The notes beneath the pieces were generated by a model. It was not told where the DNA came from and did not search any database. It saw only the letters and a list, made by a program, of their open reading frames with translations. Positions 9,936 to 54,700 of a DNA stretch of 64,000 bases are shown one piece after another. The DNA comes from Oligoflexales bacterium (GTDB lineage: Bacteria > Bdellovibrionota_B > Oligoflexia > Oligoflexales > RGVZ01): assembly GCA_044236265.1 (NCBI GenBank), contig JBIIGV010000233.1:1-64000 (forward strand), written 5' to 3'. The translations under genes and the position numbers were made by a program. The stretch's first letter is position 1, and every line of letters begins with the position of its first letter.

Positions 9936-9983
9936 GTTCTTGGACCTCCAAACCGGGGTGGATAATGCCTTCTAAGCAAGCCG

Positions 9984-10040: not shown

Positions 10041-10062
10041 TCGATGTAAAAGGTGTGAAAAC

Positions 10063-11535: not shown

Positions 11536-11593
11536 CAGTGACTAAAAGCGCGTCTACGCATTCATGGTTCGGATGGAAATGAAGGAGGCTGTC

Positions 11594-12853: not shown

Positions 12854-12872
12854 AAGCTCTAGAAGGGGCGCT

Positions 12873-14108: not shown

Positions 14109-14134
14109 GACCTGATTTTGAGAGGAACAAAAGT

Positions 14135-30345: not shown

Positions 30346-31600
30346 AAAACAATTGAAGTTACATTCAGCCGCATTGATCTATTCTTTGTTGAACCCCTCA
30401 GTTGCAAGTGCTTATCCGTTTCTTTACACAGGAATTCATCAGATTGCTAACTCCGGTTTATCGGCTCTCGGTAGTTCGGATGCCACAGCAACTGCAGCAA
30501 ATCCTGCGAATCTTTCGGACGCCCAAGCGACGAGTTCCTACGCAGATATGGCGATTGTATCCATGCAATACATATATGCACATACAAACTACGATCCAGT
30601 TTATCTGAAGACCGTTGCCCCTCCAGTCAATCTTGGACTTAACGTGAAGACTGACTCAGGTCTCAGTTTCGGTCTTCTTGTGAGTCCTCGTACTGCTCCT
30701 GGCGCTAAACCTATCCGTGTGAATTCTGTGCCGACATTTACTGGTGCGGGATACGCCTTATTTAATCTAGATATTGAGCAAAGCGGATTTATGGGTGGAC
30801 TTGGTGCAGGTTACAAGCTTCCTGGAACAGGTTGGTCTGTCGGATTAACACTTCTTTATGGAGAGGATGCTCAGGAGATCTCCGCCTATGCATCAGAAGG
30901 TGATCAAAGTTTGCCGGGCATGGATATGAAGTATTCTGGGCGTAGTATCCAGGGACTAATGGGAATCGCCTACGCAGGTGGTCGATCATCTCTAGGTATG
31001 ACTTTTAGGAGTCCTGCTGCCAGGCGTTATGATGGCGATATCGCAAGTGCATTGACAGATAACGTTTATGACCACTACAACGGCGTTTCTTATCATCCTG
31101 CACAGCTGACTGGAGCCGTGCAAGTTGGTAGAGGTGTGATGGATTATATGATGCAGGTAAATCGTGACTTTTGGTCGCTCGGACGCAACGTCGCAAATCG
31201 CGGTTTACCTTATGGATCTCCAGAAACTGACTTCAAGGATAGTTTTGGGGTGTCCTTCGCTGCAAAGCTTCGCCAAAGCGACTCAACGTCGCTGTCGGCG
31301 TCCTGCGGGTATTATTCAGCTAACACGGGAGACGGAAGTGCCATCGATCACGGCTCAACGGCTCTCGATGACACCGCTATTCCGGTTCAAACTGGGATGG
31401 AGTTCGGTCAAATGGAGGCCATTCCCCGGGCTGTGCTGGGTGCTGGAATGATAAGAACCCTCGGAGACAACAGAGGATCTTGGGTTTTTTCCGGTAATTA
31501 CCAAACGGGTACTAGGACCATTCCCGTGGGCCACAAGGGTGAAGGTTGGTACCATATCGACGTTTTCACGGTGGCGAGCGGGCTAAATGTGAAATTTTGA
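30335..31600 (+). CDS. Outer-membrane beta-barrel, FadL/OmpP1/TodX-like
   Basis: Signal peptide ends ASA. The N-terminal hatch-like motif SDATATAANPANL resembles D.sA...NPA. Alternating amphipathic strands and a C-terminal Phe (GLNVKF). Overlaps the upstream stop; ATG 30335 (track 30329). Confidence 0.65.
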   Translation: MWIEKQLKLHSAALIYSLLNPSVASAYPFLYTGIHQIANSGLSALGSSDATATAANPANLSDAQATSSYADMAIVSMQYIYAHTNYDPVYLKTVAPPVNLGLNVKTDSGLSFGLLVSPRTAPGAKPIRVNSVPTFTGAGYALFNLDIEQSGFMGGLGAGYKLPGTGWSVGLTLLYGEDAQEISAYASEGDQSLPGMDMKYSGRSIQGLMGIAYAGGRSSLGMTFRSPAARRYDGDIASALTDNVYDHYNGVSYHPAQLTGAVQVGRGVMDYMMQVNRDFWSLGRNVANRGLPYGSPETDFKDSFGVSFAAKLRQSDSTSLSASCGYYSANTGDGSAIDHGSTALDDTAIPVQTGMEFGQMEAIPRAVLGAGMIRTLGDNRGSWVFSGNYQTGTRTIPVGHKGEGWYHIDVFTVASGLNVKF

Positions 31601-31869: not shown

Positions 31870-33579
31870 ATGCGAAGCAAAGCACGACAAATTTTATCGT
31901 CGTTTAGGCAGCGGCTGCTCTTTTTGTGCATTTGCATATTCAGCACGATATTCATTAGCGCAAACGGTGATCCAATCGATGCGCAAACTACTGACAACTC
32001 CGTCGCCTCTCGCATTTACTACGTCACAATACCCATTGATCGTAGCGTCGGTCCATATCTCAGACAGCTTAAATTACTGATTCCAGACGTTCCTGCGCCT
32101 TATAACGATTCGAAGTTGTACGATGGTGACACGTGGGATCAACTCGTTGATAAATTATTAACGAAGAAAGATTCTAACGTGCGAGATCGTCGTACTCCGA
32201 CGCAAGTGGTTGTTCCACTTCCAGCAGGATGTTTTGATTCTTCGATGAGTATGGAGAAGCGTGAACAGTGTTTGCAAAATCCTGCTGCATTTGCAAAAGG
32301 CTATTTGACCCTTCGCCTCTATGACGTCAAGGACGGCGATTCACTTCCTGACGTTTTGTCTCGTCACGGCGTTTACCCGACTCGGGAAGGTTCCTCTTAC
32401 TATAATCAGCAGCGATGGAGTGACGTTGTACAAAACTTCAACCCGCGCATTAATCAGTGGAATAATCTCAATGCAGGTTCAGTCTTTATTCTTCCGCTCT
32501 TAAATGAGAGCGAATCCCGGGCAAGAGATGCTGCCAAGACTGTGGCTTCTGCTCCTGTCGTTGAATCTGAGCCAGCAATCTCGAATGCTTCTGATGTTAA
32601 GGACGCAGGCGAGCAGTTGCCTGTTGACGGGCAAGCGGTACCGCTTGATGTTGTTTCCCCGGTCACTGAGGTCGCGCCAACAGCGGCCACACCGCCTGCA
32701 CCAATTCCGCAGCCAGTTGTACCAGTTCCTGTGAAGCCGGCTCAACCGGTAGTCGCTGAAACGCCGGCTCCGCCGCGGCAGCCATCTCCTGCACCGAAGC
32801 CAGTGCAGATTGTTGCCGAGCCTCAAGCGCCAGAGGAAGAGGTTGTCTATGTAGACGAGCTTCCTCCTCCTAAAAAGATTGTATACGCACGCGAACCACA
32901 GTCCGATCTATCGTTTAGTGTAGCCAGGAATGTTCTCTCTTCTGTTCGCATTCCAATGATGGCCCGTCAGAATCATTTGAATTTGAGCTATACTCGCTCG
33001 GATCCAGGTAATTCTGATTGGTGGATCAATGTCTATCAGTCTCCGATTGTCAAAGGTAAATCAGATTCGCCTTATTTGATCGAGACCGACGACTCTAGTG
33101 AACGTTTTAAATTCAGTAATCTTGAGTTGGGCACGAAGTTCTACATGTCAGCTCCAGTTCCAACCTGGAGTATCTACGCCGGGTTGTACGCAAGATGGAT
33201 GGCCCTCGATCTACGCTATTGGATTAGTAACAACAGTGATGAAACAGCCTATCTCGTAAATCGCAAAGCCTTTAGAAATGTTGGGGCTGGTGTAACTGCT
33301 GGGGTAGATCATTCACGAGGCAATGTCCGCTATCGTTTCAATGTTGCCAAAGACCTTTACGAATTTGTCGATCAGGCGGTGCATATTGATCGAACGAATG
33401 CGCGCTTTTCTGCATCGTTCCGATTCCCGAAAGTTAAGGAACGTGGAAAGACGCAGCGACATGTGGATCTCTTCACAGAGTCTGAGACGCTAAATGTGAA
33501 TGTAATCAGTGATTCGGCAATGCTTCAGGTGACAATGAAGCGCTTGTCGGTGGGTGTTGGTGCTGGTTTGGTGTGGTGA
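31870..33579 (+). CDS. Secreted LysM-like / Pro-rich linker / C-terminal beta-barrel outer-membrane protein
   Basis: Signal peptide, then a LysM-like segment YDVKDGDSLPDVL...NFNPRINQWNNLNAGSVFILP and a ~120-aa Pro/Ala/Val/Glu-rich linker. About 230 aa of amphipathic strands end in VGVGAGLVW. Confidence 0.7.
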   Translation: MRSKARQILSSFRQRLLFLCICIFSTIFISANGDPIDAQTTDNSVASRIYYVTIPIDRSVGPYLRQLKLLIPDVPAPYNDSKLYDGDTWDQLVDKLLTKKDSNVRDRRTPTQVVVPLPAGCFDSSMSMEKREQCLQNPAAFAKGYLTLRLYDVKDGDSLPDVLSRHGVYPTREGSSYYNQQRWSDVVQNFNPRINQWNNLNAGSVFILPLLNESESRARDAAKTVASAPVVESEPAISNASDVKDAGEQLPVDGQAVPLDVVSPVTEVAPTAATPPAPIPQPVVPVPVKPAQPVVAETPAPPRQPSPAPKPVQIVAEPQAPEEEVVYVDELPPPKKIVYAREPQSDLSFSVARNVLSSVRIPMMARQNHLNLSYTRSDPGNSDWWINVYQSPIVKGKSDSPYLIETDDSSERFKFSNLELGTKFYMSAPVPTWSIYAGLYARWMALDLRYWISNNSDETAYLVNRKAFRNVGAGVTAGVDHSRGNVRYRFNVAKDLYEFVDQAVHIDRTNARFSASFRFPKVKERGKTQRHVDLFTESETLNVNVISDSAMLQVTMKRLSVGVGAGLVW

Positions 33580-33646
33580 TTTGGGCTGGGGGCGGACCAA
33601 CTGTGATTAAGGGCGCAAGTTGGTGAAATTCATAACTATAATAGGA

Positions 33647-33660
33647 AATGCTTAAGCATT
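33647..33660. promoter_or_regulatory. Perfect 14-bp palindrome (candidate operator)
   Basis: AATGCTTAAGCATT is self-complementary and flanked by AGG...CCT. It covers the -35 of the sigma28-like promoter. Confidence 0.5.
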
Positions 33661-33678
33661 CCTGTAGTTTGCCGAATC
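33652..33678 (+). promoter_or_regulatory. sigma28 (FliA)-type promoter of the giant gene
   Basis: TTAAGCAT-N11-GCCGAATC, with the same geometry as the 28326 site, 41 nt upstream of ATG 33719. Confidence 0.55.
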
Positions 33679-33718
33679 CCTCCTAGTACGGGCGTGAGAA
33701 CTAATTCGGGTAGTGCTA

Positions 33719-36700
33719 ATGTTTCTCAAACGACTGAAATTTATGGCGCAGTTCAAAGCTGGTCAAGCTTTGCTATCTATTGTCATATTCAGTTTCCTAC
33801 TCTCCTGTGAATCCAACTTTTCGGGTAAAGTCCTTAACTCCAATAGAAAAAATAATCCATTTGCTACGGCAAATCTGTTGGAGGGTCAGGTTGCGTTTAA
33901 AACAACAAAGTTGTCGACAAAAGCACGCGGAACTCGCCTTTCTGGAGAAGCCTGTACCGATCAAGCAACGGTCTACTTGACACACTTTGCCACATATCAA
34001 GACAGCTTAGTTATTGAGGTTCGCAAACGCATTCTATCGGTTAAGGCCGATAGCGATGGGCGCTTTAAATTTACGAACTTGAAAGAACAGGGCGTAAATC
34101 TTCAGTCAAAAAATGATATTTATAAGGTGGAAGCAGAGCGTTGCAGCGACTACTACTCAAGGGTCGTGACAGGAGCGCAGGAGCAAAACCTAAGTGCAGC
34201 TGGTACCGCATTTGACTTCACACTCGACAAAACTGTTATCAAAGCAAGTCTTGGATCAGACGACTTTTACGCCAAACTGGAGGATTTGGATAAACTGTAC
34301 AGTCTTGCTGACACTCGCAACTCGGTCGAAGGTGTATTGGAAACACTTCGCACGAGTCGTGAAACACAAAAATCATATAGCAATATTTTTGGTGCTGAAG
34401 ATGTCACTCTTCAGAATATCGAACCCCGAATTGTAATTGAGTCCGTACCCCTTAAAATTCCCGCAACTATTCTGACCCGTTTTGAAGTTTTAGCTGTTTA
34501 CTATTCCGCCGAATTCAATGTCGATTATCGGTGGAAGTTAGACGGCGAAGTTGTCAGCACTGACCCTGGGTTTAGTTGGCGCCCGACGTCGACCCAGCTC
34601 GGTCTGCACACTATCGAGTTGAGTGTTGGGGTGCGAAGCCAGTTTAACCTGGACGCATACCTTAACTCTAAGATCATGAATTACTCGATCAATGTTGTTG
34701 AAGCAACCTCCGATCCACGAACGCCCGTCGTGTCGAGTTTTGCTTTGGCTAACGCCGCGGCTGGTGGATTTATCAATAATGCTCATGCTTCGGACGCAGA
34801 AGCTGTCGCAAGTTTGGTTGCCACCAATTATGATCAAGCCTCATATGCAATTGTCGCCCCGAACGTCACTTGCAATGAGTCTACGTCATTCCCGCTTGCT
34901 TCGATCCCGACTTTTGGAAGCTTTACAGTAGATGGAAGTTACAAAGTCTGTGCAAAGGTTTCGCGAAGTGATGGGGGCACTGTTTACGTAGCAACTCAAA
35001 CGTTGCAACGGGATGTTGTGATACCATCCGTGAGCTTTGTCGATGTGTTGCCCAAGGCTGGATCGACGAACCCGAAGCCGACAATCAAAGGAACGGCATC
35101 CGAGGCATCTTTAGTCTCTCTGTACTACGATGCAAGTTGTTCTTCTGCGAAGTCTTCAGCAACGGCAAACACAGTTTTTGCGTCACCAGGAATGACCGTT
35201 GCATCTGATGTTAATTTAAACAATACGACGACAATCTATGCGCAGGCGGTTGATCCGGCTGGAAACCCATCGCCGTGCTCTTTGATGTTGACGTACACCC
35301 ACGACGACGTAACGCCCATTGTTAAAAATATCAAAGCTAATGTGGCCGATAATGGCTACAAGGCTGGCGATGTTATCCCGATTGAAGTGGAATTCTCTGA
35401 GCCAGTAAAAGTAACTGGCGTGCCGACTTTGACTCTTGAAACAGGATCGTCTGATGTTGTGGTTAATTACACATCTGGATCTGACACCAAGTTTCTGATT
35501 TTCAACTTTACGGTCGGATCAAACCAGACAGCTGCGGACCTCGACTACATTTCAGCGACGGCTCTGTCTGCTTCCGGTGGTAGTATTCAGGATCAAGTTC
35601 AAACTGATGCAGTCCTAACATTGCCAGCCCCTGGGGCAGCTGGCAGTTTGTCGGCAAATAGTAACATTCTGATTGATACGACCATACCAGTAGTCACATA
35701 TGCGTCGATCTCTCCTTCGTCCCCAGGTACAAGTCTGACACCAGCCGTATCGATGTCTCTAAGTGAAAACGCGACCGTGACCTTATACGGTAACAGTAGC
35801 TGTTCGGATGCAATTTCATCGGCTACGGCCCTGTCGGGAACCGGTTTACAAGTTATTACGACGAATACGCTCGCAGCTAACGCTGCGACAACGATCTTTG
35901 CCCGCGCCGTTGATGGTGTGACAAATCAGTCTGTTTGTCACAGTATGATTGTCTATACGCATGACAATATTGCGCCAACCGTCGCGTCTTTTGCGAGATC
36001 ATCTGGCCAAAATTCATTCACTAATTCCGTACCAATAAATTTTGGCGTTCAATTTTCTGAAGTGATCGACCCATCAACATTCACGGCAAGTGATATTTCT
36101 AACACGGGTACTGCGACCGATATCGTTTGGACTGTTACGGACTCTGGTGATCACCGCAACTTTGTTGTAGCTGCGACGCAATCTGGAAACGGTACATTAA
36201 AGCCATCTTTTGCAGCGACTGCGGTGAGTGATCCGGCAGGGAATGCAATTCAGTCCATTTCGACGTCATCTAATGACGTGGCATATTCTATCGCCCTATT
36301 CACTGTAACGTTGAATCAAACAGCTGGGCAGGTTGATCCTGCAAACTCGTTGCCGATATCGTTCACAGCCGTGTTCTCTGATGAGGTGGGTACAGGTCAG
36401 TTTGTCGCTCAAGATATTGTTCAGCAGGGCACTGCTTCAGGAATCACCTGGAATTTGGCAACTACGGATAATATCACATGGACGATCACAGCGACTGCGA
36501 TAACGGGTCAGGGAACCGTCGTTCCTCATATTCCTCAAGATGCAGTTTTAGACCGCTACGGAAACAAAAATGGTGCGTCAACTCACACAGATAACTCCGT
36601 GGTTTATGACATTACGGCTCCGACGATCACATTTACAAATCTTACTCCAGCAAACCCTTCTTCGGAGCTGCGTCCAACGCTCAAAGGTACGGTGTCTGAA

Positions 36701-39700
36701 GCGTCGATTGTAACCTTGTACTTTGATAGTAGCTGTTCGGCAGCCAAATCCGATGCTGTTGCGAACACAGTGCTGCCTATGCCTGGTCTTGCACCAAATA
36801 TTGATGTAGCTGCCGATACAATGACGCCGATTTATGCGCGCGCCATCGATCCCGCAGGCAATATTTCGGTTTGTACGTTAATGGTCAATTACAACCACGA
36901 CGGCACGCCTCCGTTCGTGGTGTCAGTTGGCTCGACTAAAGCTGATGGCTTCTATAAAGCTGGCACGGTCATCCCGATCGCCGTCAATTTCTCTGAAAAT
37001 GTATTTGTGGTTGGTACTCCGCAAATAACGCTCGAAACTGGCTCTACAGATCGAGTTGTAAATTATTCAAGTGGATCAGGCACTCCGACATTAGTCTTCA
37101 ACTACACGGTTCAGGCTGGTGATACGGCAGCCGACCTTGATTATCTGGATACCTCAGCCTTCGCACTAAATGGCAGCACCATTAAAGACTGGGTTGATAA
37201 CGATGCTGTCATGACTCTTCCATCCACCGGCAGCGCGACCAGTATCGCTGGCCAAAAATCAATCGTCATCGATACAGCCGTACCCGCTGTCTCGTTCGTG
37301 TCAATCTCACCTGTATCTCCAGGAATGAGTCGAACTCCCTCGGTGACCGTCAATGTGTCAGAAAATGCGAGTGGGATCGCCTTATTCAGTAACCCAACGT
37401 GTGGATCTGCAATCTCGGCGAGCATAGCGGGATCATCCGGCAACAATACTGTGGTGACGAATACGCTGACCGCTGATGCTCTGACTCCAATTTACGCTCA
37501 AGTGACAGACCTCGCCGGTAACGTTTCCTCCTGTGCGAATATGACCGGCTACCAGCATGACGGTACGCCTGCCGTTGTCACGTCCGTGTCTTCATCTTTG
37601 GCGAACGGAACATATGGTGTCGGCCAAGTGATTCCAATCGAAGTCAGCTTCTCGGAAGTCGTTTATGTCAACGGGACACCGTTTTTGACGCTCGAAACTG
37701 GCGCTACGGATGCCGTCGCCAACTACGCATCTGGTTCCGGTACCAACAAGCTGACTTTTAACTACACTGTCGTGGCCGGCGAAAACACTCTTGATTTGGA
37801 ACTGACGTCACTGAGTGCGATAAATCTTAATTCCGGCACAATCAAGGATCTCGCTGGCAATGACTCAACCGTGACGGTAACGCCACTGGCTGGCGGTAGT
37901 AGCTTATCTGGACAAAAGGCTATCGTCGTGGATACGACAGGGCCGACGCTAACATATGCCTCAGTCTCTCCGGTGCCTCCGGCTACTTCAAGAACACCCG
38001 CGGTGACCATGAGTCTTTCTGAGCCTGCTGCCGTGACTCTGTACAGTGACAGCGATTGTTCTGCCGCGATATCGTCGTCAGTGAGTTTTGCTGCTGGCGT
38101 AGGTCGAACAATCACGACCAACACACTGACAGCTAATGCGACGACGCCGATTTTTGCAAAAGGTATAGATGCTGTAAACAACGCATCAGCTTGTACAAGT
38201 ATGATTGTGTACACGCACGATGATACGCCGCCAGTTGTGATGTCCTTTGCTCGTGCATCGAGTCAGATTGCCCAGACGAACTCTGTTCCAATTAATTTCA
38301 CGCTGACATTCTCTGAGCCTATTAATCCCTCGAGTTTGACGGCGGGAGATATCTCCAATATTGGAAACGCGACAGGAGTTACATGGTCGATCTCTAATTC
38401 AGGCGACAATGCAACTTTCACGGTATCTGCAATCGCAGCAAGTAACGGAACCCTCCAGCCAAGATTGGCTGCGGCGAGCATTGCTGATCATGCCGGCAAT
38501 ACAAACGTAGCCGGTGCGGACTCGCCAAACAATGTCGGTTATTTTGTAGCGGTGTTGACGGTGACGATGAATCAGGCTGCTGGACAAGGGGATCCAGTCA
38601 ACGGTTTACCAATTAGTTACAACGTTGTATTCTCTGGAGCAGTAGGTGCGAATAGTTTTACGACTGGTGATATCGTTCAGAACGGCACAGCTGGGGGAAT
38701 TACTTGGACACTGTCGACCACTGACAATATTAGTTGGCTCCTACGGGCTACTGCGATAGCGACTCCGGGTACAGTCATCCCGTCGATTGCAGCAAGCTCT
38801 GTCATCGATGAATTCCAGAACCAGAATGCGGCTTCAACATCGACCGACAATACAGTCGTCTACGATATTACGCCGCCGACGTTAAGCTTTTCATCTTTGA
38901 CGCCATCCAATCCTTCGCAGTCAATGACGCCGACGATTATCGGTACAGCGTCTGAGCCGTCGACGGTGACGCTATACTACGACTCCGGATGTTCTGTCGC
39001 TAAGTCAGCCACGGTTCCGAACACCTCGTTTGCAAGTCCTGGTATCACGCCGACAGGTAATGTGGCTGCTGATACTGCCACCGTGATTTACGGTATGGCT
39101 ACCGATACGGCAGGGAACATTTCTGCTTGTACGAGTCTTGTCTCTTATGTTCACGATGGTACCGGGCCAAGCGTGACGAGTGTCACGTCTACATTAGCTG
39201 ACGGTCCTTATAAGGCAGGTCAAGTTGTCCCTGTCTTCGTGAACTTCAATGAAAATGTAAACCTCGCTGGTACTCTGCAATTGGCACTAGAGACTGGTGC
39301 GATTGATGCAGTTCTAAACTATGTGTCTGGAAGTGGTACGAGCTCCCTAAGATTTAACTACACAGTGGTTGCTGGAGATACCTCGCTAGATCTTGACTAT
39401 GTCAGTTCAGCTTCTCTGGCTCTTTTAACAGGTACCCTTCGCGACGCTGTCGGAAACGATGCAGTCCTCACGTTACCTGCTCCTGGAGCGTCTGGAAGTA
39501 TGGGTGCAAATAAAGCGCTCATCATCGACACGACGGCGCCAACGATGACTTTCTCAAATACGTTGCCGGTTTCGCCTGGTAACACTCAAACCCCACAGGT
39601 GACGTTCACTATTTCAGAGAACGTACCTACCGTAAGGCTGTTTACAGATAATGCTTGTTCGGTGGGTGCCGCTCCTGCAAGTACTGGATTAATGGGCAGT

Positions 39701-42700
39701 AACACGGTCACGACGAGTGCGTTGCCAGCTAATACTGGTACTAGCCTATACGTGCGCTCCACAGATGCCGCAGGAAACGTGTCGAGTTGTACGCTTCTGA
39801 CTACTTACACCCATGACGGCATCCCAGCGACCGTGACAAACGTATCTTCCTCATCAACGAACGGTACTTACGGGGTTGGTAATACCGTTGCGATTGTGGT
39901 GACGTTCTCTGAAATCGTAAATGTGACTGGCGCTCCTCAGTTGACCTTGGAAACAGGCGCAATCGACGGTGTCGCGAATTACGTCTCCGGCAGTGGAACA
40001 ACGGCGCTAACATTTAATTATGTGGTTTCAGCTGGCGAGTCGTCCCTTGATCTGGATTATGGAAGCACGACGGCTTTGGGTTTGAATGGTGGAACCATTC
40101 GCGATCGGGCCGTGAATAACGCCGATCTGACCCTGCCTGCTGTGGGTGGTGCCAGTGCAATTGCAGCACAAAAAGGTATCATCATCGATACGACGGCACC
40201 GACTATTACATATTCGAGCATTTCTCCTGTGCCACCATCAGCTAGCATGTCCGCTTTCGTGACCCTGCAGGTCTCAGAGGCGTCAACAGTAACTCTCTAT
40301 AGTAATCCTGGGTGTTCTGCCGCTATCTCGAGCGCTAAGGCTATGATCTCTGGCGGCGATCAAATGATCTCAACTGTCAATCTTCCTACAAACACATCGA
40401 CGACCATCTATGCGCGTGCCGTAGATCCTGTTAATAACGTCTCTGAGTGCACGAACATGGTTGTCTATACGCACGATAACATTGCGCCTCAAGTAGATTC
40501 CTTTACACGGGCAGCGACTCAGGCATCATACACGAACTCCCTGCCAATGAACTTCACACTGACGTTCTCTGAGCCGATTATTCCTGAGACACTAACTGGC
40601 AGCGATTTTGTGAATATGGGAACAGCAACCGCAGTAACCTGGGGTGTAGCTGATTCTGGTGATCACCGAACATTTACAGTTTCTGCAACGGCTTCTGGCA
40701 ATGGGACTCTGAGACCTCGTTTGGCCAGTGGCGCTATCACTGACCTTGCAGGTATTGGTAACCCGCTCAACGCAACGTCTGACAATAGTGTGAATTATTC
40801 GATTGCTGCGTTTACTGTCACCGTGAATCAGGCTCCTGGCCAGGGCGATCCGGTGAACTCGCTGCCTATTAATTTTAGAGTCGTATTCTCCGGAGCCGTT
40901 GGTTCAAATAGCTTTACCGCGTCCGATGTTGTTCAAAACGGATCGGCAGAGGGTGTGACCTGGAATCTTTCTACAACCGATAACATCACATGGACCGTTT
41001 CGGCGACCGCTGTGAATATTCAGGGCACCGTGATTCCATTTATCTCTCCAAATACAGTTTTGGATGAATTTGGGAATAATAACGCGGCATCAACAAGTAC
41101 TGATAGCAGTGTCGTTTACGATATCGCTGCACCAGTCCTAACGTTTGCGTCGGTGACGCCGTCAAATCCTGCTGCAACGCGTACGCCGACAGTTTTGGGG
41201 ACCTCGTCTGAACCGTCAACTGTCACCCTCTACTACGATTCCGATTGTAGTACCGCCAAATCTTCGGCTGCATCTAACACAGTCTTCGCGAGTCCAGGTA
41301 TCGCTCTTACCTCGAATGTTGACGCTGACGTAACGACAACAATTTATGGTCGTGCTGTTGACGTGGCAGGAAACGTTTCTATCTGTACGAGTCTTGTCGG
41401 CTACCAGCATGATGGAACAAGTCCGACGGTAACGAACGTGACATCCACACTCGCCAACGGACCCTATAAAGCTGGCCAGCTTATTCCTATTCAGGTCACC
41501 TTCTCGGAGCCTGTCTTTGTTACGGGCGCTATGCAGCTGACTCTGGAGACAGGATTGTCCGATGCGGTGGTGGCGTATACCGTGGGGAGTGGAACAAGTA
41601 CTTTGACCTTCAACTACACCGTTGCTGCTGGTAATACGGCTGCCGATTTGGATTATGTGGGAACCTCAGCGTTGGCACTGATTTCGGGAACCATCAAAGA
41701 TAGCGTCGGTAATGATGCTAATCTCGCCCTGCCAAGTCCTGGGTCGTCTGGAAGCTTGGGTGCCAATAAGAGTCTTTGGATTGACACCACAGCGCCGGTC
41801 TTGGCATTCACCTCGATCAATCCTGTGTCTCCTGGTATCAGCCAAAATCCACAGGTCACATTCACAGTGTCTGAGTTGGTGCCGACTCTAAGGCTTTATA
41901 CGGACGCGATCTGTAGTGCCGCCATTTCAGGTTGGAACACGGGTAGTGCCGGCGCGAACACGATCGCGACAAGTACATTGGCCGGCAATGTTGCAACCAG
42001 CATCTTTGCTCAGGGAACTGACCCAGCAGGTAACACATCAAATTGTACGAGCCTGACGACTTATCTTAACGACGGCTTGGCGCCAACGGTGACAGGCGTC
42101 ACGTCAACTGCGGCGGATGGAACTTACGGCGGCGGCCAAGTTGTACCAATCAAGGTTGATCTTAGCGAAGTTGTTTTTGTGACGGGAACTCCCCAGTTGA
42201 CTCTTGAAACCGGTGCCTCCGACGCGGTGGTCAACTATTCATCGGGTAGCGGAACCACGTCTTTGATCTTCAACTACACAATCGTTCCTGGTCACGACTC
42301 CGTTGACTTGAACTATGCGTCGATGTCTGCGCTTGTTGCGAATGGTGGTAGCATTAAGGACCTTGCCGGTAATGATGCTAACCTTGCATTAGCGGCCCTT
42401 GATGCTGCGTCGAGTTTGGCGAGTCAGAAGGCTATCGTGATCGACACGACGGTCCCGGTGATGTCTTATGTTTCAATCTCTCCGGTTCCGCCGGCGCAAA
42501 GCCAGACACCAACTGTAACGTTTAGCTTGTCTGAGCCTTCAACCGTAACGCTGTACCGTGAGTCGGGATGTTCGACGGCGATTTCCAGTGCGATTCCACT
42601 AGCTGCCGGACCTGCTCAATCAATCACGACGAACACGTTGACATCAAACGCAGCGACAACGATTTTTGCCAAGGCCATTGATACGGTTACCAACCCGTCG

Positions 42701-45700
42701 GAGTGTACCCAATTAGTTGTTTACTCTCACGACAACACATCGCCTGCGGTCTCGTCTTTTGCTCGCAATGCAACACAGCCAGCAATGACCAACTCGTTGC
42801 CGATCAACTTTACGATCACATTCTCTGAACCAATCAATCCGTCGTCGTTCGTCTCAACTGATTTATCCAATGGCGGAACCGCGACAGGTGTTACCTGGTT
42901 TATTAATAATACCGGAGACAATCAGTCATTTACGGTTTCCGTCACAAACTCAGGAAACGGTACCATTATTCCGCGGCTTGCGAGCGGGTCAATTGCAGAT
43001 ATCGCCGGCAATACGAATTCAGGTATCACGTCTGCGTCGAATAGCGTCAACTATTCAGTTGCGCCATATACAGTGTCCGTTAATCAAGCGCCAACCCAGA
43101 TTGATCCTGTCAATACACTTCCGGTTAACTTTAGAGTTGTTTTCTCGAGTGCAGTTGGAAATAACACATTCACGCCTGCAGACATTGTCCAAAACGGTAC
43201 GGCAACAGGTATAACTTGGAGTCTTTCGACCACAGACAATATCACCTGGACGGTAGCTGCGACTGCGATTTCGGGCGGATCCGGCACTGTCATTCCGTCG
43301 ATCGCTGAAAATACTGTTACTGATGAGTTTGGAAATATCAACGGTGCATCCACATCGACTGACAACACTGTTATCTACGATGTGACGCCACCAGTGGTCA
43401 CTTATTCGTCCTTGGCTCCAGCCAATCCATCGTCTGAGTTGAGGCCGTCTTTCCTTGGAAGTGTGTCCGAGATATCGACGGTAACACTTTACTATGATGG
43501 ATCTTGTGCAAACGCTCGCTCAGCAACGGTTCCAAATACTCAATTTGCATCGCCTGGCATCACAGTTAACTCGAATGTTACGGCGAATAACTCGACAATA
43601 ATTTATGCGAAGGCCGTTGATACAGCGAACAATGAGTCAGCCTGTACAAGTCTTGTGTCCTATTTACACGATAGTATTGGCCCGTCTGTGGTTAGTGTCA
43701 GTGCAAACATTGCTGATGGTAGCTATAAGGCAGGAATGGTCCTTCCGATCACAGTGACGTTCACTGAAAATGTGTATGTGAATGGAACTCTGCAGATCAC
43801 TCTTGAAACGGGAACCTTCGATGCGGTCGTAAACAATTCATCTGGTAGTGGCACAGATACATTAGTGTTCAACTATGTTGTTGCTCCGGGCGAGGTGACG
43901 CCTGACCTTGAATATAGCGGGTCGGCGGCGTTAGCTCTTATTTCAGGGACTATTAAAGACGCTGTTGGTAACAATGCAGTATTGACGTTGCCGGCAACGG
44001 GAGCATCCGGAAGTCTTGGCCTCAACAAGTCTATTATCATTGATACAACGGCGCCGACGCTAACGTATACAAACATTTTCCCAGCTTCACCTGGCAACAC
44101 CCAAACACCGCAAGTCTCTTTGGATTTGACTGAGCCAGTAACCGTCCTTCGACTATACAGTGATGCAAGCTGTACTGCTGCGATATCGCCTGCGTCGACA
44201 GGGACTATTGGTCCAAATACGGTCACCACAAATACCTTGACTGCGAATGCATCGACTACCATCTATGGTCAGGGAACAGATGCTGCTGGCAACGTCTCGC
44301 TTTGTACGCTTCTGACCTCTTACCAGCACGACGGTATTTCACCAACGGTAACCTCGGTTAGTTCGAGTTCAGCCAATGGTTCTTACGGTGTTGGGCAAAC
44401 TGTCGCAGTGACAGTGGTGTTCTCCGAGCCAGTGCTTGTTTCCGGAACGCCACAAATTACGCTTGAGACCGGATCTAGTGATGCTGTGGTTAATATGACC
44501 ACTGGCACCGGAACCAACACGCTGACCTTTAACTATACTGTTCGCGCTGGTGACACGACTGGCGACCTTGATTATCTGTCAAATGCTGCACTGGCATTGA
44601 ATGGTGGAATCATTAAGGATCCCGCAGAGAATCTCGCGGTATTAGCGCTTCCAAACACAGGAGGCGCTACCAGTATTGCGGGTCAAAAGAATATCGTGAT
44701 CGATACCACCGCCCCAGTCATAACTTATCAATCCGTATCCCCGTCGTCGCCAGCCATGAGCCAGACACCCACGTTGACAGTGACCATGTCTGAGACGGCC
44801 ACTGTGACTTTGTACAGTAACGGTTCATGTTCATCAGCTGTTTCGACTCCGACGGTTTTAAATGGCGGCGTGGGCCGAACGATTTCTACCAACGCCCTCC
44901 CAGCTAATACCACGACGACGCTTTACGCGAAGGCTGTCGACCCAGTTAATAACGTGTCTAGCTGTTCGGTGATGGTGGTTTACACACACGATATCACGAG
45001 CCCAACAGTCAGTTCATTTACGAGATCGGCTGGGCAGCTTGCCTCTACAAACTCCGTGCCGGTCAATTTCACTTTGACGTTCTCAGAGCCAATTAATCCA
45101 AATAGCTTCACTGCAGCTGATATCAGTAATTTCGGTACGTCCACGGGCGTCCTCTGGACGGTCACCAATACAGGGGACAATACGTCATTTATTGTAGCTG
45201 CCACTGTCGCCAGCAATGGAACGTTGCAGCCTCGACTGGCAAGCGGTGGAGTTACGGATGTGGCCGGCAACTCAAACTTTGGTAACGTGAACTCCAGCAA
45301 TACGGTTAATTATTTTGTTGCTGCCTACACTGTAATGGTCAACCAAAATGATGGACAAGCTGAGAGTACAAATGCGCTGCCAATCAATTTCACCGTCGTA
45401 TTCTCCGGTGCTGTCGGCAATAACACCTTTGATACATCGGACATTGTGCAAAATGGTACGGCATCTGGTATCACATGGTCGCTATCAAGTAGCGATGGAA
45501 TCACTTGGAATCTTTCTGCGACTTCGATTCTTGGAGACGGAACAGTTATTCCGTCAGTTGCAGCCAACACTGTTGTGGACGAATTTGGAAACAACAACGG
45601 CGCTTCAACGTCATCCGATAACTCGGTGAATTACGATGTCACCCTTCCAATCGTTGCGTTCTCGTCGGTCAGCCCATCTAATCCGGCTGCAACTCTGAAG

Positions 45701-48700
45701 CCTACGATTCGCGGTACTGTGACAGAGTCCTCGACAGTGGCTCTTTACTATGATTCAGGATGTTCGACTGCAAAATCTTCGGCAATGTCCAATACGGTAT
45801 TTGCAAGTCCTGGTATTACGGTGACTGGTAACGTCAATGCAAATACCACGACAGCGATTTATGCTAAAGCCGTAGACGCCGTTGGCAACGTCTCAAGTTG
45901 TACTTATCTTACGACCTATAATCACGACGGCATTGGCCCAGTAGTCACGGGTGTCAATGCGACCATGAGTGATGCAAACTACAAGGCTGGTCAGACGATT
46001 CCGATTACGGTGACTTTCAATGAGTTGGTTTTTGTTACGGGTACGCCTCAGATAACTCTCGAAACCGGTTCAGCTGACGCGATCGTAAACTATACGTCTG
46101 GTTCGGGTACGAATACCTTAACGTTCAACTATATCGTCTTTGCTGGTGATACATCTGCTGACCTGGATTACATCAGTACCACGGCGTTGACCTTTAACGC
46201 TGGTACTATCAAGGACGGTGTAGGCAACAGTGCGACTCTGACATTAGCTGCGCCTGGAAGTTCGGGAAGCTTGGGTGCTAATCGGGCTATCATTATTGAT
46301 ACAACTGCGCCCGTGATCACTTATAACAGTATTGCGCCGACATCACCAGGAATCAGTCTAGCTCCACAACTGACGTTGACGTTGTCTGAGGCTGTAACAG
46401 CGTTCCGCTTCTACTCAGACCCAGTCTGTAGCTCTCCGATATCTTCGTCCGCTTCAATGGGTTCAGGTTCTAATACCCGCGCTACGGACACTCTTGCTGC
46501 AAACGTGGTAACGACCATCTATGGGCAAAGTGTCGACCAAGCTGGCAACACATCGCTGTGTACCATGCTGACCAGCTATCGCCACGACGATGTCGGTCCG
46601 ACTGTTTCAAGTGTCACATCAACAGCCAATAATGCGACTTATGGTGTTGGTGCGGTGATCCCTGTAACGGTCACATTTACGGAACCAGTTTTTGTCACCG
46701 GAACGCCGCAGATAACGTTGGAAACTGGCGTAACTGATGCAGTTGTGAATTATTCATCAGGATCCGGTACATCGACCTTACGATTTAACTATACTGTTGC
46801 ATTGGGACAGAATACGGGTGACCTGGAGTATGTGGGTACATCGTCCCTGTCTCTCAACAGTGGCTCAATTCTCGATACGGCCGGAAACGCCGTCGATCTG
46901 GCTCTTCCAGCCCTCGGCAGTGCTGGAAGCATTGCAGGTCAGAAAAATATTGTGGTCGATACGACCGCGCCAACATTGACGTATGAGAGCATTGCGCCGG
47001 TTTCGCCTGGTATGAGCCAGATGCCGATTGTGACGGTGGCTCTCTCAGAGCCAGCAAACGTGACTTTATATAGTGATCACACATGTTCGGCAGCTATTTC
47101 TGGTTCGACATCGCTCAGTTCTGGATCCGGTCAGGCAATTACAACTTTTACATTGACAAGCAACACGACGACCGACATCTACGGTAAAGCCGTCGACCCT
47201 GTGTCGAACGCATCATCATGTCTGAACTTAGTGGTCTATACGCACGATAACGTCGCGCCATCGGTGGCGTCATTTGTTAGAGCTGCTGGCCAGCCATCGT
47301 TCACCAACTCAATTCCTATCAATTTCACGATGACGTTGAATGAGCCAGTCGACGTATCAACAATTACTGCGAGTGATATCAGTAATACCGGTACAGCCAC
47401 AGGAATCACCTGGTCAGTTACATCTGTGTCGAATACTGTCTTCACGGTTTCGGCGACGTCCAGTGGAACAGGGACTTTAATTCCAAGACTTGCAAACGGA
47501 AGCTTCCAGGACGTCGCAGGAAATGTGAGCATCAGTCAGTTCACGGCCAGTGAATCCGTTAATTACACGGCTTCGCCGTTCACAGTGACGATCAATCAGG
47601 CATCCAGCCAGGGTGATCCATCTGCTACGGATCCGGTTAACTTTACGGTGGTCTTCTCTCGTGCGGTTGGTTCAGGAAGCTTTACGGCTGCTGATATCGT
47701 TCAGAACGGATCTCTGGGTTCCATCACTTGGACGTTAACCACGTCAGATGATATCACTTGGAATCTTGCTGCGAGCGGTATGGCAGCTACTGGGACTTTG
47801 ATACCATCTATTGCCTCCGGAACGGTTGTTGACCTATATGGCAATAGCAACGCGGCTTCAACCTCGACTGATAATACGGTTAATTTTGACATCACGCCGC
47901 CAACACTGGCGTTTGCATCGTTGAGCCCATCAAATCCAGCGGCGACCCTAAGGCCAACCATCAGGGGTACGGCGTCTAAGGCTTCAACAGTGACGCTTTA
48001 CTATGATGTCTCTTGTTCGACAGCTAAGTCTGCTGGCGCATCTAATACGTCGTTTGCAACGCCGGGTATTACGCCAACCGCCAACGTGAATAGCAACACG
48101 ACGACAATAATTTACGCAAAAGCTGTGGACAGCCTTGGCAATGCTTCGTCCTGTACAAGCCTTGTGACTTATTCACATGACGGCGTTTCACCAACAGTGA
48201 CCGGTGTGAGTTCAACGCTTGCTAACGGTCCCTATAAGGCTGGCCAGTTAATACCGATTACGATTTCGTTTACCGAGGTGGTCACTGTAACCGGTACACC
48301 ATCTCTTACGCTTGAGACAGGTGCCGCTGACTCTGTCGTGAATTACTCCTCCGGATCTGGAACCAATACATTGACCTTCAATTATACGGTCTTCAACGGT
48401 GATACCGCCGCAGACCTGGACTACGTTAGTTCGGCGGCTCTGGCCCTTAATAATGGTTCTATCAAGGATCCTGTTGGTAATGATGCAACCCTAACGCTTC
48501 CAGCGCCGGGGGCTCTAAACAGCCTTGGATCGAATAAAAATCTTGTGATCGATACAACCGCGCCAGCGTTGACCTACACGTCGATTCTGCCCGTACCTCC
48601 TAGCTCCAGCAGTACGCCACAAGTCAGCTTGTCTAGCAATGAGGCAGCAACCAATCTACAGCTTTATTCCAATTCTTCATGCTCGACCGCAATTTCGTCT

Positions 48701-51700
48701 CCCGCTTCTGGAACCGTCGGCGGAAACGTTATTTCCTCAACCGGTGTCAATCTCAATGCTCCTACAACGGTCTACGCCCAAGCAACAGATTCTGCTGGTA
48801 ACATCTCGACCTGTACCCTCATGACCACTTACGTCCATGATGATGTGCCGCCAACTATTACGTCGGTTAGTTCGAGCTCAGGAAACGGCACTTACAGAGT
48901 CGGCCAGTCTTTGGCAATTACGGCCACGTTCTCGGATCCCGTCACCGTTTCTGGCGTACCGCAGTTAGCGATGGAAACTGGTGCTGTTGATACGGTCGCA
49001 AATTATTCGTCTGGGTCAGGATCAAGCACTCTCACATTTACGTATACGATCGCACTAAACGATACGTCATCAGATCTGGATTATGCGGGAACAAGTGCTC
49101 TGGCGTTAAATGGTGGCTCGATTATCGATGCTGCTGGCAACAATGCAGCATTAACGCTGCCTGCGCCCGCTGGTACCGGAAGTTTGGGGGCACAGAAGGC
49201 TTTGGTGATCCAGACGGCGCCTCCAGTATTGTCTTACACATCGATTGCCCCAACCTCTCCTGGAACCAGCCGTCAGCCTGTAGTCACATTAAGTGTTAAC
49301 GAAGCTGCAACGGTTACGTTATACAGTGATTCTGGCTGCGGGACAGCGATTTCGACGGGTACAGCGATTTCCACGGGAGCAGGTCAGACAATCACTGCTT
49401 ACACACTTCCATCAAATACAGGCACCTCGATATACGGCAAAGCGGTAGCGGCTTACGGTAACACGTCAGCTTGTACTAACTTGGTTGTCTATACGCACGA
49501 TAATATCGCCCCAACCGTGACGTCTTTTGTGAAGGCAGCCGGCCAGAACTCATTCACAAACTCGATTCCTCTGAACTTCACATTGACCTTTAGTGAACCT
49601 ATCAATGCGTCTAGCTTCACGGTTAATGATTTGATGAATATTGGCACCGCTACCGGCGTGTCATGGGAGATTGTGCCCGTTAGCTCTACAGTCTACACGG
49701 TGTCCGTAACATCGGCTGGTAACGGCAGTGTCACGCCGCAGTTGGTTTCTGGCACTGTGACCGATCCAGCCGGCAACGCGACCGCAAACAACTATGATTC
49801 CGCCGACACGGTAAACTATACGGCCGCTGCATTCACGGTTTCGGTGAACCAAGCTTCTGGTCAGGCTGATCCAGTCAATGTCCTGCCGGTTTCGTATACG
49901 GTGGTATTCTCAGGTGCTGTTGGTTCGTCCAGTTTTGATGTGTCGGATGTGACCCAGGCTGGTACAGCGTCAGGTGTGACTTGGGGCCTTAGCACCGCAG
50001 ACAACATCACATGGACGTTGACGGCAACAGCTGCTTCGTCATCTGGAACGATCATTCCTTCCATAGCAGCAGACCGGGTTGTAGATGCTTTCGGTAACAA
50101 TAATTCTGCTGCAACATCCACGGATAAGACCGTGACCTATGACATCACGAGTCCTACAGTCACATTTGCTTCATTAAGTCCTGCTAATCCATCGTCTAGC
50201 TTGACACCAACCATTCGTGGAACTGTGTCTGAGGCGTCTACTGTGACGCTATATTATGATGTGAATTGCTCGACTGGTAAATCGGCAGCGACCGCAAGCA
50301 CGGCTTTCGCAAGTCCTGGTATCGTCGTGAACGCGAACGTGAATAGCAACACATCAACGGCGATTTATGCAAAAGCTGTCGATAATGTTGGAAACGAATC
50401 TTCCTGTACGTCGCTTGTTAGCTACACCCATGACGGCGTATCGCCAACGATTACCAATGTGACCTCTGGTCTAGCTGATGGAACCTATAAAGCGGGTCAG
50501 GTCGTCCCTGTGTCCCTCACATTCTCTGAAGCTGTCACGGTAACCGGCACTCCAAAAATTAGTCTTGAGACAGGAGCCACTGACGCGGTGGTTGCGTACA
50601 GCTCCGGTTCAGGAACCAACACGCTAACATTCAATTACACGGTCTTCTCCGGTGATGTGTCTGCAGATCTTGATTACATCAGCACCACAGCGTTGGCTCT
50701 TGATGGTGGAACGATCAGAGATCATGTGGGTAACAATGCGGTTGTGACTTTGCCGGCACCCGGAACCTCCGGAAGTTTAGCGGCGAATAAGGCACTTGTA
50801 GTTGATACGGCTCCGCCGAGTGTTACGTTCACAAGTATCTCGCCAGTGTCTCCAGGAAGCTCGCGTACGCCTCAGTTGGTAGTCAATACATCCGAGGCGA
50901 TGTCTGACATCCAGATTTACACGGATGCAAGTTGTACGACCTCGGTCTCGAGCTCTCAGTCGGCAGGCGTAGGATCTAAGTCCATCACAACGTCACCCTT
51001 GCCTGCAAACGCGCAGTCCTCTCTTTATGCTTATGGATTGGATATAGCCGGAAACCCTTCTGCTTGTACGCTCATGACCAGTTATCTCCACGATGACCTT
51101 GGCGCTACGATTGCATTTGTCACATCGACAAGTTCAAACGGTACCTATGGTGTCGGCAATCAAATTGTGATTACGGTTCGCTTCTCGGAAGCAGTTTATG
51201 TGACCGGAGTTCCGCAATTAACACTTGAGACTGGTGCTTCTGATGCCGTGGTGAACTATGCCTCTGGTTCTGGCACAAACACCCTTTCATTCAACTATAA
51301 TGTCTTGTCTGGCCAATCATCGGTTGATCTTGATTATCAATCGACGACGTCGCTCAGTCTGAATAGCGGTACGATCAAGGACGTCTCAGGTAACAATGCG
51401 ACTCTAACACTTCCAACTCCTGGTGACTCCAATAGCTTGGCTGGTCAAAAGGATATTGTGATTGATAATACGGCTCCAACGATCACTTACACATCCATCT
51501 CGCCGCCATCGCCTGGCATAAGTCAGACTCCAACAGTGACGATGGACTTGTCAGAGAGCGCAACGGTTACTCTGTATAGCGATAACACTTGCACGGCCGC
51601 CATCTCTAACGCGACGCTCTTAAGCGGTGGGGCTGGCCAGACGGTCACAACGATTTCTTTAACTCCAAATGCTACAACCACGATCTACGCGAAGGGTCTC

Positions 51701-54700
51701 GACGCCGTTAGCAACGCGTCAACCTGTACAAACTTGGTGTCCTATGTCCACGATAATACGCCGCCACTTGCGAGCACGTTCGCGCGGGCCTCTGGTCAAC
51801 CAGCACTCACTAATTCGCTGCCAATTAACTTCACAGTTGCCTTCAATGAGCCAATCGCAGCCTCCTCATTCACCTCGGCTGATATCAGTAACGGCGGAAC
51901 TGCGACGGGAACGACTTGGACGGTGACCGCTGTCAGCTCGAACACTTACACAATTGCTGCAACGACGGCTAATAACGGAACCCTGATTCCACGTATTGCT
52001 CTCGGTGGTGTAACAGATATCGCGGGCAACGCGACGACATCCATGAATAATAGCTCTGAGACGGTGAACTATTCGACGGCCGCACTTTCTGTGGTTATCA
52101 ATCAGGCAGCTGGGCAAGCTGACCCAGTTGCGTCTGGGCCAATTACCTTTACGGTTCAGTTCTCTAACCCGGTAAATCCTGGGACCTTCACTGCGGCAGA
52201 TATTGTTCAAAATGGTACGGCGACTGGAATCAGCTGGGCATTAACGACAACTGATGACACCACATGGAACCTGACAGCTTCCGGTATGGCGGGTTCTGGA
52301 ACCGTTATTCCAAGTATTGCGGATACGACCGTTGTTGACGTCTTCGGCAATAACAATGCGGCTTCAACCTCAACCGATAATACTGTCACTTACGACATTA
52401 CGGCTCCGTCCTTGACGTTCTCGTCTCTGTCTCCTTCAAATCCCGGTTCTACCTTGACTCCAAGTGTGCGGGGTACGGCGTCTAAAGCGTCCACAGTTAC
52501 GTTGTACTTCGATAGTCTTTGTTCAACCTCTAAGTCAGCTGCGACGGCGAGCACAGCATTTTCCTCGCCTGGTATCACACTGACCGGTCTTGTGAATTCA
52601 AATACGACCACGACAATTTATGCAATGGCAGTTGACGCCTTGGGTAATGCCTCTGGTTGTACACAGATGGTTGTTTACACCCACGACGGAGCGCCGCCAA
52701 CCGTGACATCGATCAGCTCGACTTTAGCTGATGGTTACTATATGGCAGGTCAATTGATCCCAATTACAGTGACGTTCTCAGAAAATGTTACTGTGACCGG
52801 TACTCCTAATTTGGCGCTAGAGACCGGCTCGACGGACGCCACGATCAACTATACGTCGGGAAGTGGTTCAAATGTTCTGACATTCAACTACACAGTAGCT
52901 GCAGGTGATACATCCTCGGACCTTGATTTTGTTGGATCCTCTTCGCTCGTTCTTAATGGTGGAACGATTCGCGATGTCATTGGTAACAATGCAATCCTGA
53001 CGCTTCCGGCACCTGGAACCGCAGGAAGTCTTGCTGCCAACAAAGCACTTGTAGTTGATACAGCAGCACCTTCGCTGACCTACACGTCCATCAATCCAGT
53101 TTCACCGAATTCAAGTCAAACACCACAGGTAACGCTTGTGCTCTCCGAAGCTGCTCAGAACGTTCAGCTTTATTCAAATCCTGTCTGTAACAATGCGATA
53201 TCGTCCTCCAGTGTAGGTTCAGTCGGGACCAATGTGATCACGACGACCACTCTCCTCAGTAATGCGACGACATCGATCTTTGCCAAAATGACGGACTTAG
53301 CTGGAAATGATTCATTCTGCGTATCGATGACGAACTATGCGAACGACATGACGGCACCAGGTGTTTCGTCCGTCACTTCGACCTCAACCAACGGCACCTA
53401 CGTTGTGGGTCAAACGATTCCGGTTTCGATTACCTTCTCAGAGAACGTTTATGTAACCGGCACACCGCAGCTCACCATGGAGACGGGAGCCACTGATACT
53501 GTTGCAGACTATGCTTCTGGATCTGGAACGAATACGCTCGTCTTTAATTATGTCATCGCTTTAAATGACGCGTCTCTTGATCTTGATTATCATTCGGCCG
53601 GTGCCTTGGGTGCCAATGGCGGAACGATTAAAGATCTTGCTGGTAACAACGCTGTTCTTACGTTGGCATCCCCGGGGGCTGCTAGTAGCTTGGGCGCCAA
53701 CAAAGCGATTGTGATTCAAACGACTCTGCCGACCATTAGCAGTGCTTCAATTAGTCCTGCGTCTCCAGGTAGCACTCGTACGCCAACGGTTTCGATGACT
53801 CTATCAGACGCATCGACGGTCACTCTGTATAGCAACTCTGACTGTTCAACAGCGATCTCGGCAGCAAAATCTCTGGTCGCTGGTTCAGGTCAAACAGTGA
53901 CGACTTACACGCTAGCGTCCAATGTTGCGACACAGATTTATGGAAAGGCTGTAGCTGCCTTTGGTAACACGTCGGTCTGTACATCTTTAATTAGTTACAC
54001 ACACGATGATGTGGCGCCATTCGTGAGCAGCTTTGTGCGCGCTAGCGGTCAAAATGCATTCACAAATTCCACTCCAGTGAACTTCACTCTCACCCTGAGC
54101 GAATCGATCAACGTAAGCACGCTGACCGCGGTAGATATTTCCAATGCCGGTACTGCGACGAATGTGGTTTGGTCTGTAGCATCAGTTAGCAGCTCAGTCT
54201 TTACAATCTCCGCTAACTCGTCTGACAACGGAACAATTATTCCTCGCCTGGCCGCCAATGCTGTGGCAGATCCAGCTGGAAACACGAATGTTGCTCAGGC
54301 AAGCGCAACTGATACAGTGTCATACACGGCAGCAACCTACACCGTGACCCTCAACCAGGCCACGGGACAATCTGATCCGATCAATGCACTGCCAGTAAAC
54401 TTCACAGTTGTATTCTCAAGTGCCGTTGGTTCTTCGAGTTTTGATGTCTCTGATATCACTCAGACAGGTACAGCTAGTGGAATTACTTGGACTCTTGCGA
54501 GCGCTGACCAGATTACGTGGACGCTTTCTGTAACAGCTGTAACGACTCCGGGTTCTATCGTTCCAATGATAGCGTCGAACCGAGTGGTAGACGAGTTTGG
54601 TAACCAGAATGGACAGTCTGCCTCTACCGATAATTCCGTTGTCTATGACACGGCCGCACCTGTGGTCACGTTCTCGTCGGTTACACCAGCTAATCCGTCT

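Follow-up and report, generated by a model that had tools for sequence, protein, structure and literature searches.

Giant adhesins of Gram-negative bacteria such as LapA, SiiE and MpIBP bypass the periplasm: adhesins of this type I secretion system (T1SS) kind have no Sec signal, carry RTX repeats and a C-terminal signal, and leave through an HlyB/HlyD/TolC exporter. In the inverse autotransporters intimin and invasin (type Ve) the DNA runs from a LysM-type region through an outer-membrane (OM) barrel to an immunoglobulin (Ig)-like array. The invasin-like lipoprotein adhesin InvL of Acinetobacter has Ig-like domains and no barrel, and depends on type II secretion (by the T2SS) for surface display (PMC9245377). 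GspN is required for the display of both InvL and PulA, and PulA depends on an Asp at position +2 (PMC12802150). Here we analyse the first 64,000 nucleotides (positions 1-64000, hereafter the window) of a 79,186-nt contig (C202) from an Oligoflexales genome (G000, estimated 89% complete), which carry a 569-aa barrel gene (gene A) and, directly 3' of it, a giant lipobox gene (gene B). The individual parts of this A-B system belong to known kinds. We tentatively favour an explanation in which B is a giant adhesin displayed by the T2SS and A its dedicated peptidoglycan-tied anchor, not its pore, a combination that we regard as plausible, if not quite probable.

B resembles InvL and PulA in its lipobox, in having no barrel of its own and in a genome that encodes a T2SS with GspN, it shares with InvL an Ig-like shaft with a tip, adhesive in InvL and presumably in B, and with PulA an acidic residue at +2. 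Unlike InvL (52 kDa) it reaches at least 1.52 MDa and has a seven-module super-repeat, an RCC1 tip (seen in the related genome G001) and a conserved upstream barrel gene, and it differs from both in showing no clear sorting motif. LapA, SiiE and MpIBP likewise carry tip domains on a megadalton Ig-repeat shaft, whereas B has a lipobox and Cys pairs, contains no RTX motif (none in B itself, none in the C-terminal part from G001), and lies in a genome with no HlyD match over the cut-off. The order of parts in the inverse autotransporters is also that of A and B, yet here they are two genes, the barrel has 10 predicted strands and not 12, there is no IAT_beta match, and B has its own lipobox and numerous long-range Cys pairs.

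A in turn recalls the OmpM, SlpA and OmpA tethers, in which a wall-binding domain is joined to an OM barrel (for A, wall binding is predicted from weak LysM matches). OmpM reportedly combines a periplasmic SLH region with its barrel, whilst A has LysM-like units, an OpcA-type barrel and a distribution limited to a few genomes of one genus, beside one giant gene, unlike a general envelope protein. No SLH match was found in A by Pfam, nor was SLH among the families matched by its aligned N-terminal domains. The barrel is predicted to fold like those of OpcA, the omptins and a Legionella porin (PDB 9nh1), to which A adds a periplasmic LysM-like region and a spacer, and it has no conserved His. 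The partner in two-partner secretion (type Vb) is an Omp85-type 16-stranded barrel with POTRA domains and the Slam (type XI) translocon joins a TPR region to a 14-stranded barrel; A is unlike either, with 10 predicted strands and no family match (Pfam and NCBIfam for the former, Pfam for the latter).

B is seemingly the opposite of LapA, SiiE and MpIBP, in that a chain exceeding 1.5 MDa appears to be exported by Sec, to be lipidated and to form dozens of disulfides. Were it carried by the T2SS, the size range of this machine would widen about tenfold, and one could ask concretely how a tethered chain of ~140 domains is fed by a secretin. So long a lever may be held only weakly by a lipid anchor alone, and coupling it to the wall through a partner barrel would be a new way of securing it. 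Neither the giant size of a lipid-anchored, Cys-paired adhesin nor a constant partner barrel was found in a literature search that left subscription journals mostly outside.

Architecture of A and B

Searches of Pfam, NCBIfam and PDB sequences with gene A were all without match, its parts (Table 1) were delimited from models and alignments, and the signal peptides of both proteins were judged from sequence or pattern. An initial annotation of the locus had described A as a protein with a signal peptide, a Pro-rich linker and a C-terminal barrel ending in Trp, all of which is borne out, the signal peptide as a probable one. Its single LysM-like domain is instead modelled as two tandem units, and the likeness to LysM is weak. 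Folded alone, residues 46-215 (11 sequences, pLDDT 69) form two beta-alpha-alpha-beta units, and their fold matches are mostly LysM-type domains at low significance (best Foldseek E 0.14), the second unit giving Z up to 4.2 with a root-mean-square deviation (rmsd) near 2 Å over ~50 residues. An Atlas look-alike score of 0.87 was obtained for the region, and Pfam LysM was found in 3 of 11 aligned copies of the N-terminal domain, all at E ≥ 0.16. The entire block (residues 47-212) is duplicated in orthologues of the G001 type. The spacer sequence is not conserved, whereas both end domains are kept: five proteins of the G000 type have 127-156 aa with 14-21% Pro, whilst in G001 and another related genome, G004, it is replaced by ~300 aa rich in Ala, Glu and Lys (38-43% Ala).

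Table 1. Coordinates of genes A and B and their parts in the window.
Feature	Position	Strand	Description and basis
Gene A	31870..33579	+	569 aa, ends ...GAGLVW; signal-like N-terminus, tandem LysM-like units, spacer, predicted 10-stranded OM barrel
A residues 1-31	31870..31962	+	probable cleavable Sec signal peptide; by eye from sequence; N-terminal helix in model
A residues 47-212	32008..32505	+	two tandem beta-alpha-alpha-beta (LysM-like) units with invariant Cys pair; models, alignment
A residues 213-339	32506..32886	+	spacer; 127 aa, 21% Pro
A residues 344-569	32899..33576	+	predicted 10-stranded barrel, OpcA/omptin fold; AlphaFold2 model, fold matches
Intergenic gap A-B	33580..33718	.	139 nt here, ~160 nt in related loci; none of the listed terminator-like sites falls in it
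B signal peptide and lipobox	33719..33808	+	FLLSC, Cys30; Cys codon 33806-33808
B residues 31-333	33809..34717	+	lineage-restricted N-terminal region with Cys pair and PKD-like stretch; profile searches
B residues ~334-433	34718..35017	+	one copy of a Cys-pair repeat unit often seen in large Oligoflexales proteins; profile search
B shaft	35018..64000	+	super-repeat of ~752 aa, built from seven Ig-like modules of which three carry a Cys pair; ~13 copies in window

The AlphaFold2 model of A (9 sequences, whole-model mean pLDDT 52) places ten strands in residues 344-568, where block pLDDT is ~49-88. Because the predicted number of strands is even, which in OM proteins puts the N-terminal part on the periplasmic side, the LysM-like region should face the periplasm. 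The best solved folds are the Legionella Dot/Icm porin I (PDB 9nh1; Z 19.7, rmsd 4.0, 215 aligned), OpcA (2vdf; Z 19.3, rmsd 3.3, 200 aligned) and OmpT (Z 17.6, rmsd 4.2, 206 aligned), at only 5-8% identity, compared with Z ≤ 10.7 for autotransporter barrels. Foldseek also ranks OpcA at the top (E 1e-7), and the Atlas look-alikes are OpcA, omptin and OMP_b-brl. Across nine sequences, with sides assigned from the predicted strands, the outward face is the most conserved (0.70), followed by the membrane part (0.64) and the periplasmic turns (0.49). Invariant charged residues lie within the membrane part. Of the invariant Asp residues, D407, D408 and D507 are on the outward face and D495 is where a strand ends on that side; no His column exceeds 44% of the rows. 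A complex prediction of A (45-215 plus 340-569) with B 30-335 scored 0.01 (mark 0.32); with the controls not folded, this is no evidence either way.

B had been placed about 140 nt after A, in agreement with the gap to its ATG at 33719 (an in-frame GTG lies at 33713). The lipobox is retained as [LT]SC with an invariant Cys in 6/6 aligned orthologues, judged by pattern, and is followed at +2 by Glu in G000 and Asp in 5/5 other orthologues. Its ~430-aa N-terminal region, 44-45% identical in the orthologues that follow A, had been called unique; only residues ~1-330 are restricted in range, whilst residues 334-435 are a repeat unit of the order. A profile containing the N-terminus matched 25 of 60 related genomes, and among the matches listed all beyond the four full-length ones fell on that unit. 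Pfam finds nothing in B beyond Big_5 and a weak PKD_3 match (E 0.00078, below the Pfam cut-off), the latter at the PKD/Ig-like stretch noted earlier in the N-terminus.

The B frame is still open where the contig ends (C202:79186), at least 15,156 aa (1.52 MDa) from its ATG and after ~19.6 copies of the super-repeat. Each ~752-aa period holds three Cys-pair modules, two LETG-type and two other modules. The ~39 modules with a Cys pair each that had been counted are 39 real pairs in the window, carried by only three modules in seven, so that the majority of modules are Cys-free. The window contains 83 of the Cys residues, five in the N-terminal region and 78 in these pairs. To the contig end the count is 123, made up of the lipobox Cys, two pairs in the N-terminus and 59 further pairs whose members are 44-46 aa apart, in the window as in the whole frame.

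The far end of the protein is seen in the related genome G001, placed in the genus of G000 (an RpoB fragment is 96% identical). A 7,342-aa frame there, open at its 5' end, carries the same super-repeat and closes with Big_12, then 13 stretches of RCC1 and one last Ig-like unit, with neither an autotransporter barrel nor an RTX nonapeptide, so the possibility raised in the initial annotation that B might end in its own autotransporter barrel or T1SS signal finds no support in this orthologue. This frame and a 6,449-aa N-terminal frame belong to the same locus because grx and metB follow the one and ECH precedes A at the other; joined, they give ~13,800 aa or more. A signal-peptide protein apparently fused to one super-repeat in G001 (C1 ~309,800-313,400; L042:5825-9376, minus strand) was rejected as a likely scaffolding artefact with a run of N between the parts, its barrel-like front part being a stand-alone family in 12/13 genomes of the genus. 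For G000, contig C30 was rejected as a continuation of B, its start repeats the end of a lipoprotein on C28 letter for letter. C28:2-1822 (minus strand) and C30:1-3378 (plus strand) together hold one lipoprotein split by the identical overlap, with B's Cys-pair and LETG modules at 51-58% identity, Gly-rich domains at its end and no A homologue nearby.

Distribution and linkage of the pair

Relatives of A are rare: six proteins among 5.8 billion (312-996 aa) and, for the barrel profile, six clusters among 1.84 billion representatives, the most divergent (P0010) at 34%. The barrel occurs in 4/94 Oligoflexales genomes, all of one genus, and all carriers of the pair are known only from metagenome assemblies; full-length matches to B residues 1-330 fall in the same four genomes among 60 searched. 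The stretch itself was found in 20 sequencing runs from 20 studies, mostly lake-water or freshwater metagenomes, nine of them with at least half of its words. The initial annotation had asked whether homologues of A consistently precede a giant lipoprotein, and they do in 6/6 loci with DNA beyond the A stop (G000, G001, G004, G006 and the additional loci L016 and L017), whilst in G005 only a 5' part of A is present, at a contig end. The stop, the gap and the separate B lipobox recur in all six loci, so that A and B are two polypeptides, and A is single-copy in G000.

The two genes do not always occupy the same chromosomal site. ECH, grx and metB are adjacent in G000, G002 and G008, and in G001 an FKBP gene, A and B are inserted between ECH and grx, whilst in G000 A and B are located elsewhere. 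Related genome G012 carries another gene before grx, and a metB match is missing in 2/5 genomes searched. G001, G004 and G006 all carry the FKBP gene in that insertion, and G000 has it elsewhere. Among the genes examined, A and B are the only ones common to both sites. A and B therefore moved as a pair on one occasion or more. An RpoB tree with 19 genomes requires two changes for the carriers and a single carrier clade is rejected (p-AU 0.03), although the starred branches force only one change. This joint relocation is moderate support for a functional pair, and no more than that because one event moves neighbours together regardless of function; overall we think that A and B are rather probably linked in function.

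Promoter-like sites near the two genes number three, against 3.0 in shuffled sequence. RNA-library contigs cover 244 nt inside A and ~150 nt at the start of B, in different runs and with the gap not bridged, and say nothing of expression level or of co-transcription. Downstream of the G001 giant lies a TolC/RND pair, rejected as a partner because grx, metB and an iminopeptidase gene set it apart and it maps to another contig in G000. Upstream of A, at 28409-31600 (plus strand), is a 423-aa gene whose product ends in Phe and looks barrel-like by eye, together with two lipobox genes, none with a Pfam or NCBIfam match; the family of the 423-aa gene is present in 13/13 genomes of the genus and is not tied to the A-B pair.

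Export and anchoring of B

In the explanation that we favour, B would be exported by Sec, lipidated (as is likely) at Cys30, oxidised module by module in the periplasm, and then passed through the T2SS, where GspN would handle the lipid. It would end up anchored in the outer leaflet and hold an RCC1 tip like that of G001 off the cell on at least ~140 Ig-like modules, likely working as a long adhesin. A would be inserted by BAM, its predicted LysM-like units would bind peptidoglycan across the flexible spacer, and its conserved outward loops would hold the lineage-specific N-terminal region of B, or else A would stiffen the envelope at the base of B. That A bears the load of B in one of these two ways, by contact or by stiffening, seems to us a fair guess short of a probability. 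A doubtful extension is that the pair forms a mobile two-gene display cassette in which the wall-tied 10-stranded barrel grips the N-terminal region of B and passes load to the cell wall, B then being the largest T2SS substrate by about tenfold and A the first dock that couples a lipoprotein adhesin to the wall and is dedicated to it.

The initial annotation supposed that B needs an undescribed way across the OM, which is not supported, since a T2SS with GspN has been published for lipoprotein Ig adhesins and is encoded in G000. Its operon is divided between two contigs, C100 with C, D, E, F and G, and C101 with pseudopilins, K, L, a small gene in the place of M, and N. Curated cut-offs are exceeded by GspD, GspE, GspG and GspN, and C, F, K and L are matched below them. 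GspN is matched in 92/94 genomes of the order (89 over the cut-off), compared with 4/94 for the barrel of A. Because this T2SS includes GspN and the acidic residue at +2 resembles the Asp of PulA, export of B by the T2SS with GspN is proposed and, on this analogy, appears on balance probable. The largest T2SS substrates known to us are SslE (~165 kDa) and PulA (~117 kDa). Giant Omnitrophota genes beside T2SS-like loci have been described in a preprint, their products having many transmembrane regions and SecA domains (bioRxiv 10.1101/2023.11.21.568195).

Several observations weigh against this explanation. GspN is near-universal in the order, so finding it in G000 does not mark out B as its substrate. 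Among the 18 large lipoproteins of G000 there is no enrichment of the G/S/D/N-rich motif that sorts Acinetobacter T2SS lipoproteins (mean 2.3 of 7, against 2.6 in 239 others), and B itself scores 4 of 7, matched by 64 of these 239 background lipoproteins. B is ~30 times the size of InvL and ~10 times that of the largest substrates named above. The evidence for LysM units in A is weak in both sequence and fold scores, and the C-terminus of B in G000 is not assembled, nor was it found among open-ended open-reading frames (ORFs). Linkage of A and B rests on two lineages, and a single deletion or transfer can shift two neighbours together without any function. Adjacency alone is weak evidence: of 39 same-strand orthologue pairs with gaps of 61-400 nt, taken from 18 regions of 20 kb on one G001 contig, 22 are neighbours in both G000 and G001. 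Finally, G012 (94% complete) has an open-ended super-repeat fragment and no match to A or to the N-terminus of B; this fragment (C285, L106) is 2,093 aa long, its frame runs open on both sides, and it shows the B super-repeat at 52-53% identity.

Much the same facts speak for a serious if somewhat unlikely alternative, that A is an independent OM tether or receptor, a neighbour of B or co-regulated with it, which never touches B, the latter being held by its lipid alone. Besides the background adjacency and the restriction of the pair to two lineages, the FKBP gene behaves as a passenger at the same insertion in three genomes, and large lipobox proteins do occur without A. Fourteen regions with B-repeat matches were drawn from genomes lacking A, one of them the G012 fragment; the other 13 hold a Cys-rich lipobox-type protein with frames of ~1,400-6,700 aa, in unrelated neighbourhoods, and none is directly preceded on its strand by an evident barrel gene (by eye). 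Yet A is never without B in the six loci with downstream DNA and has one copy in G000, A and B are the sole examined genes shared by both sites, and a general tether would be expected in more than 4/94 genomes. Alternatively B, with A as anchor or bystander, might be displayed by another general route (Lol followed by BAM- or Lpt-linked flipping, or an order-wide exporter). LolA is present in G000, for Bacteroides an Lpt-linked route has been reported (PMC13692018), and both the absence of sorting-motif enrichment and the sheer size of B favour such a route. We nevertheless consider it rather improbable, as Asp or Glu at +2 in 6/6 B proteins resembles the Lol-avoidance signal of PulA, a T2SS with GspN is present, and G000, at its estimated completeness, has no HlyD over the cut-off and no IAT_beta (E. 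coli control positive).

Two further roles for A would make it act on B directly. The initial annotation saw in A a candidate anchor or translocation partner, of which the anchor remains plausible; the dedicated translocator, a split inverse autotransporter, is very unlikely, even though a LysM-like region and barrel beside an Ig array mirror the parts of intimin, A and B co-occur perfectly so far, and the membrane part of the barrel holds invariant charged residues. Ten strands are predicted, the best folds are of the 10-stranded type (Z 17.6-19.7, as against at most 10.7 for autotransporter barrels), and A is confined to 4/94 genomes whilst similar lipoproteins are encoded across the order. 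Translocators of type V secretion (T5SS) have 12 strands, and the passengers contain little Cys, in pairs set close together (PMC8151025), in contrast to the 59 widely spaced pairs of B. A is thus probably not the exit route of B, because similar lipobox proteins occur without it and its strand number and the Cys pattern of B are unlike those of T5SS. The role with the least to recommend it, which we think highly improbable, is that of an omptin-like protease at the cell surface, cutting B back or setting it free: OmpT is the third-best fold (Z 17.6), and D407, D408 and D507, with D495 at a strand end, are invariant and outward, whereas omptins use an Asp-His catalytic dyad, no His column passes 44% of rows, and no Omptin family match was found by sequence.

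Other large lipobox proteins and neighbouring genes

Large Cys-rich lipobox proteins are common across Oligoflexales, and no published description of them was found in our literature search, from which most subscription journals were again missing. By a crude pattern, 257 of 2,629 ORFs in G000 (~10%) encode lipoproteins, many of them Cys-rich with varied tip domains. Nineteen ORFs of at least 600 aa, B included, combine a lipobox-like pattern with an S/T/G/N-rich make-up, set against a single A barrel in the genome, and no A homologue was seen in the examined neighbourhoods of the others. A second giant frame (C64:29942-53407, minus strand) has 7,822 aa, an open 5' end with its start unassembled, 84 Cys and different repeats. 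Elsewhere in the window (9312-14770) lie genes that we take by eye to encode uridine kinase, aldehyde dehydrogenase, a GTP cyclohydrolase II-like protein, a URC4-like protein and uracil phosphoribosyltransferase, together presumably resembling a URC uracil degradation cluster.

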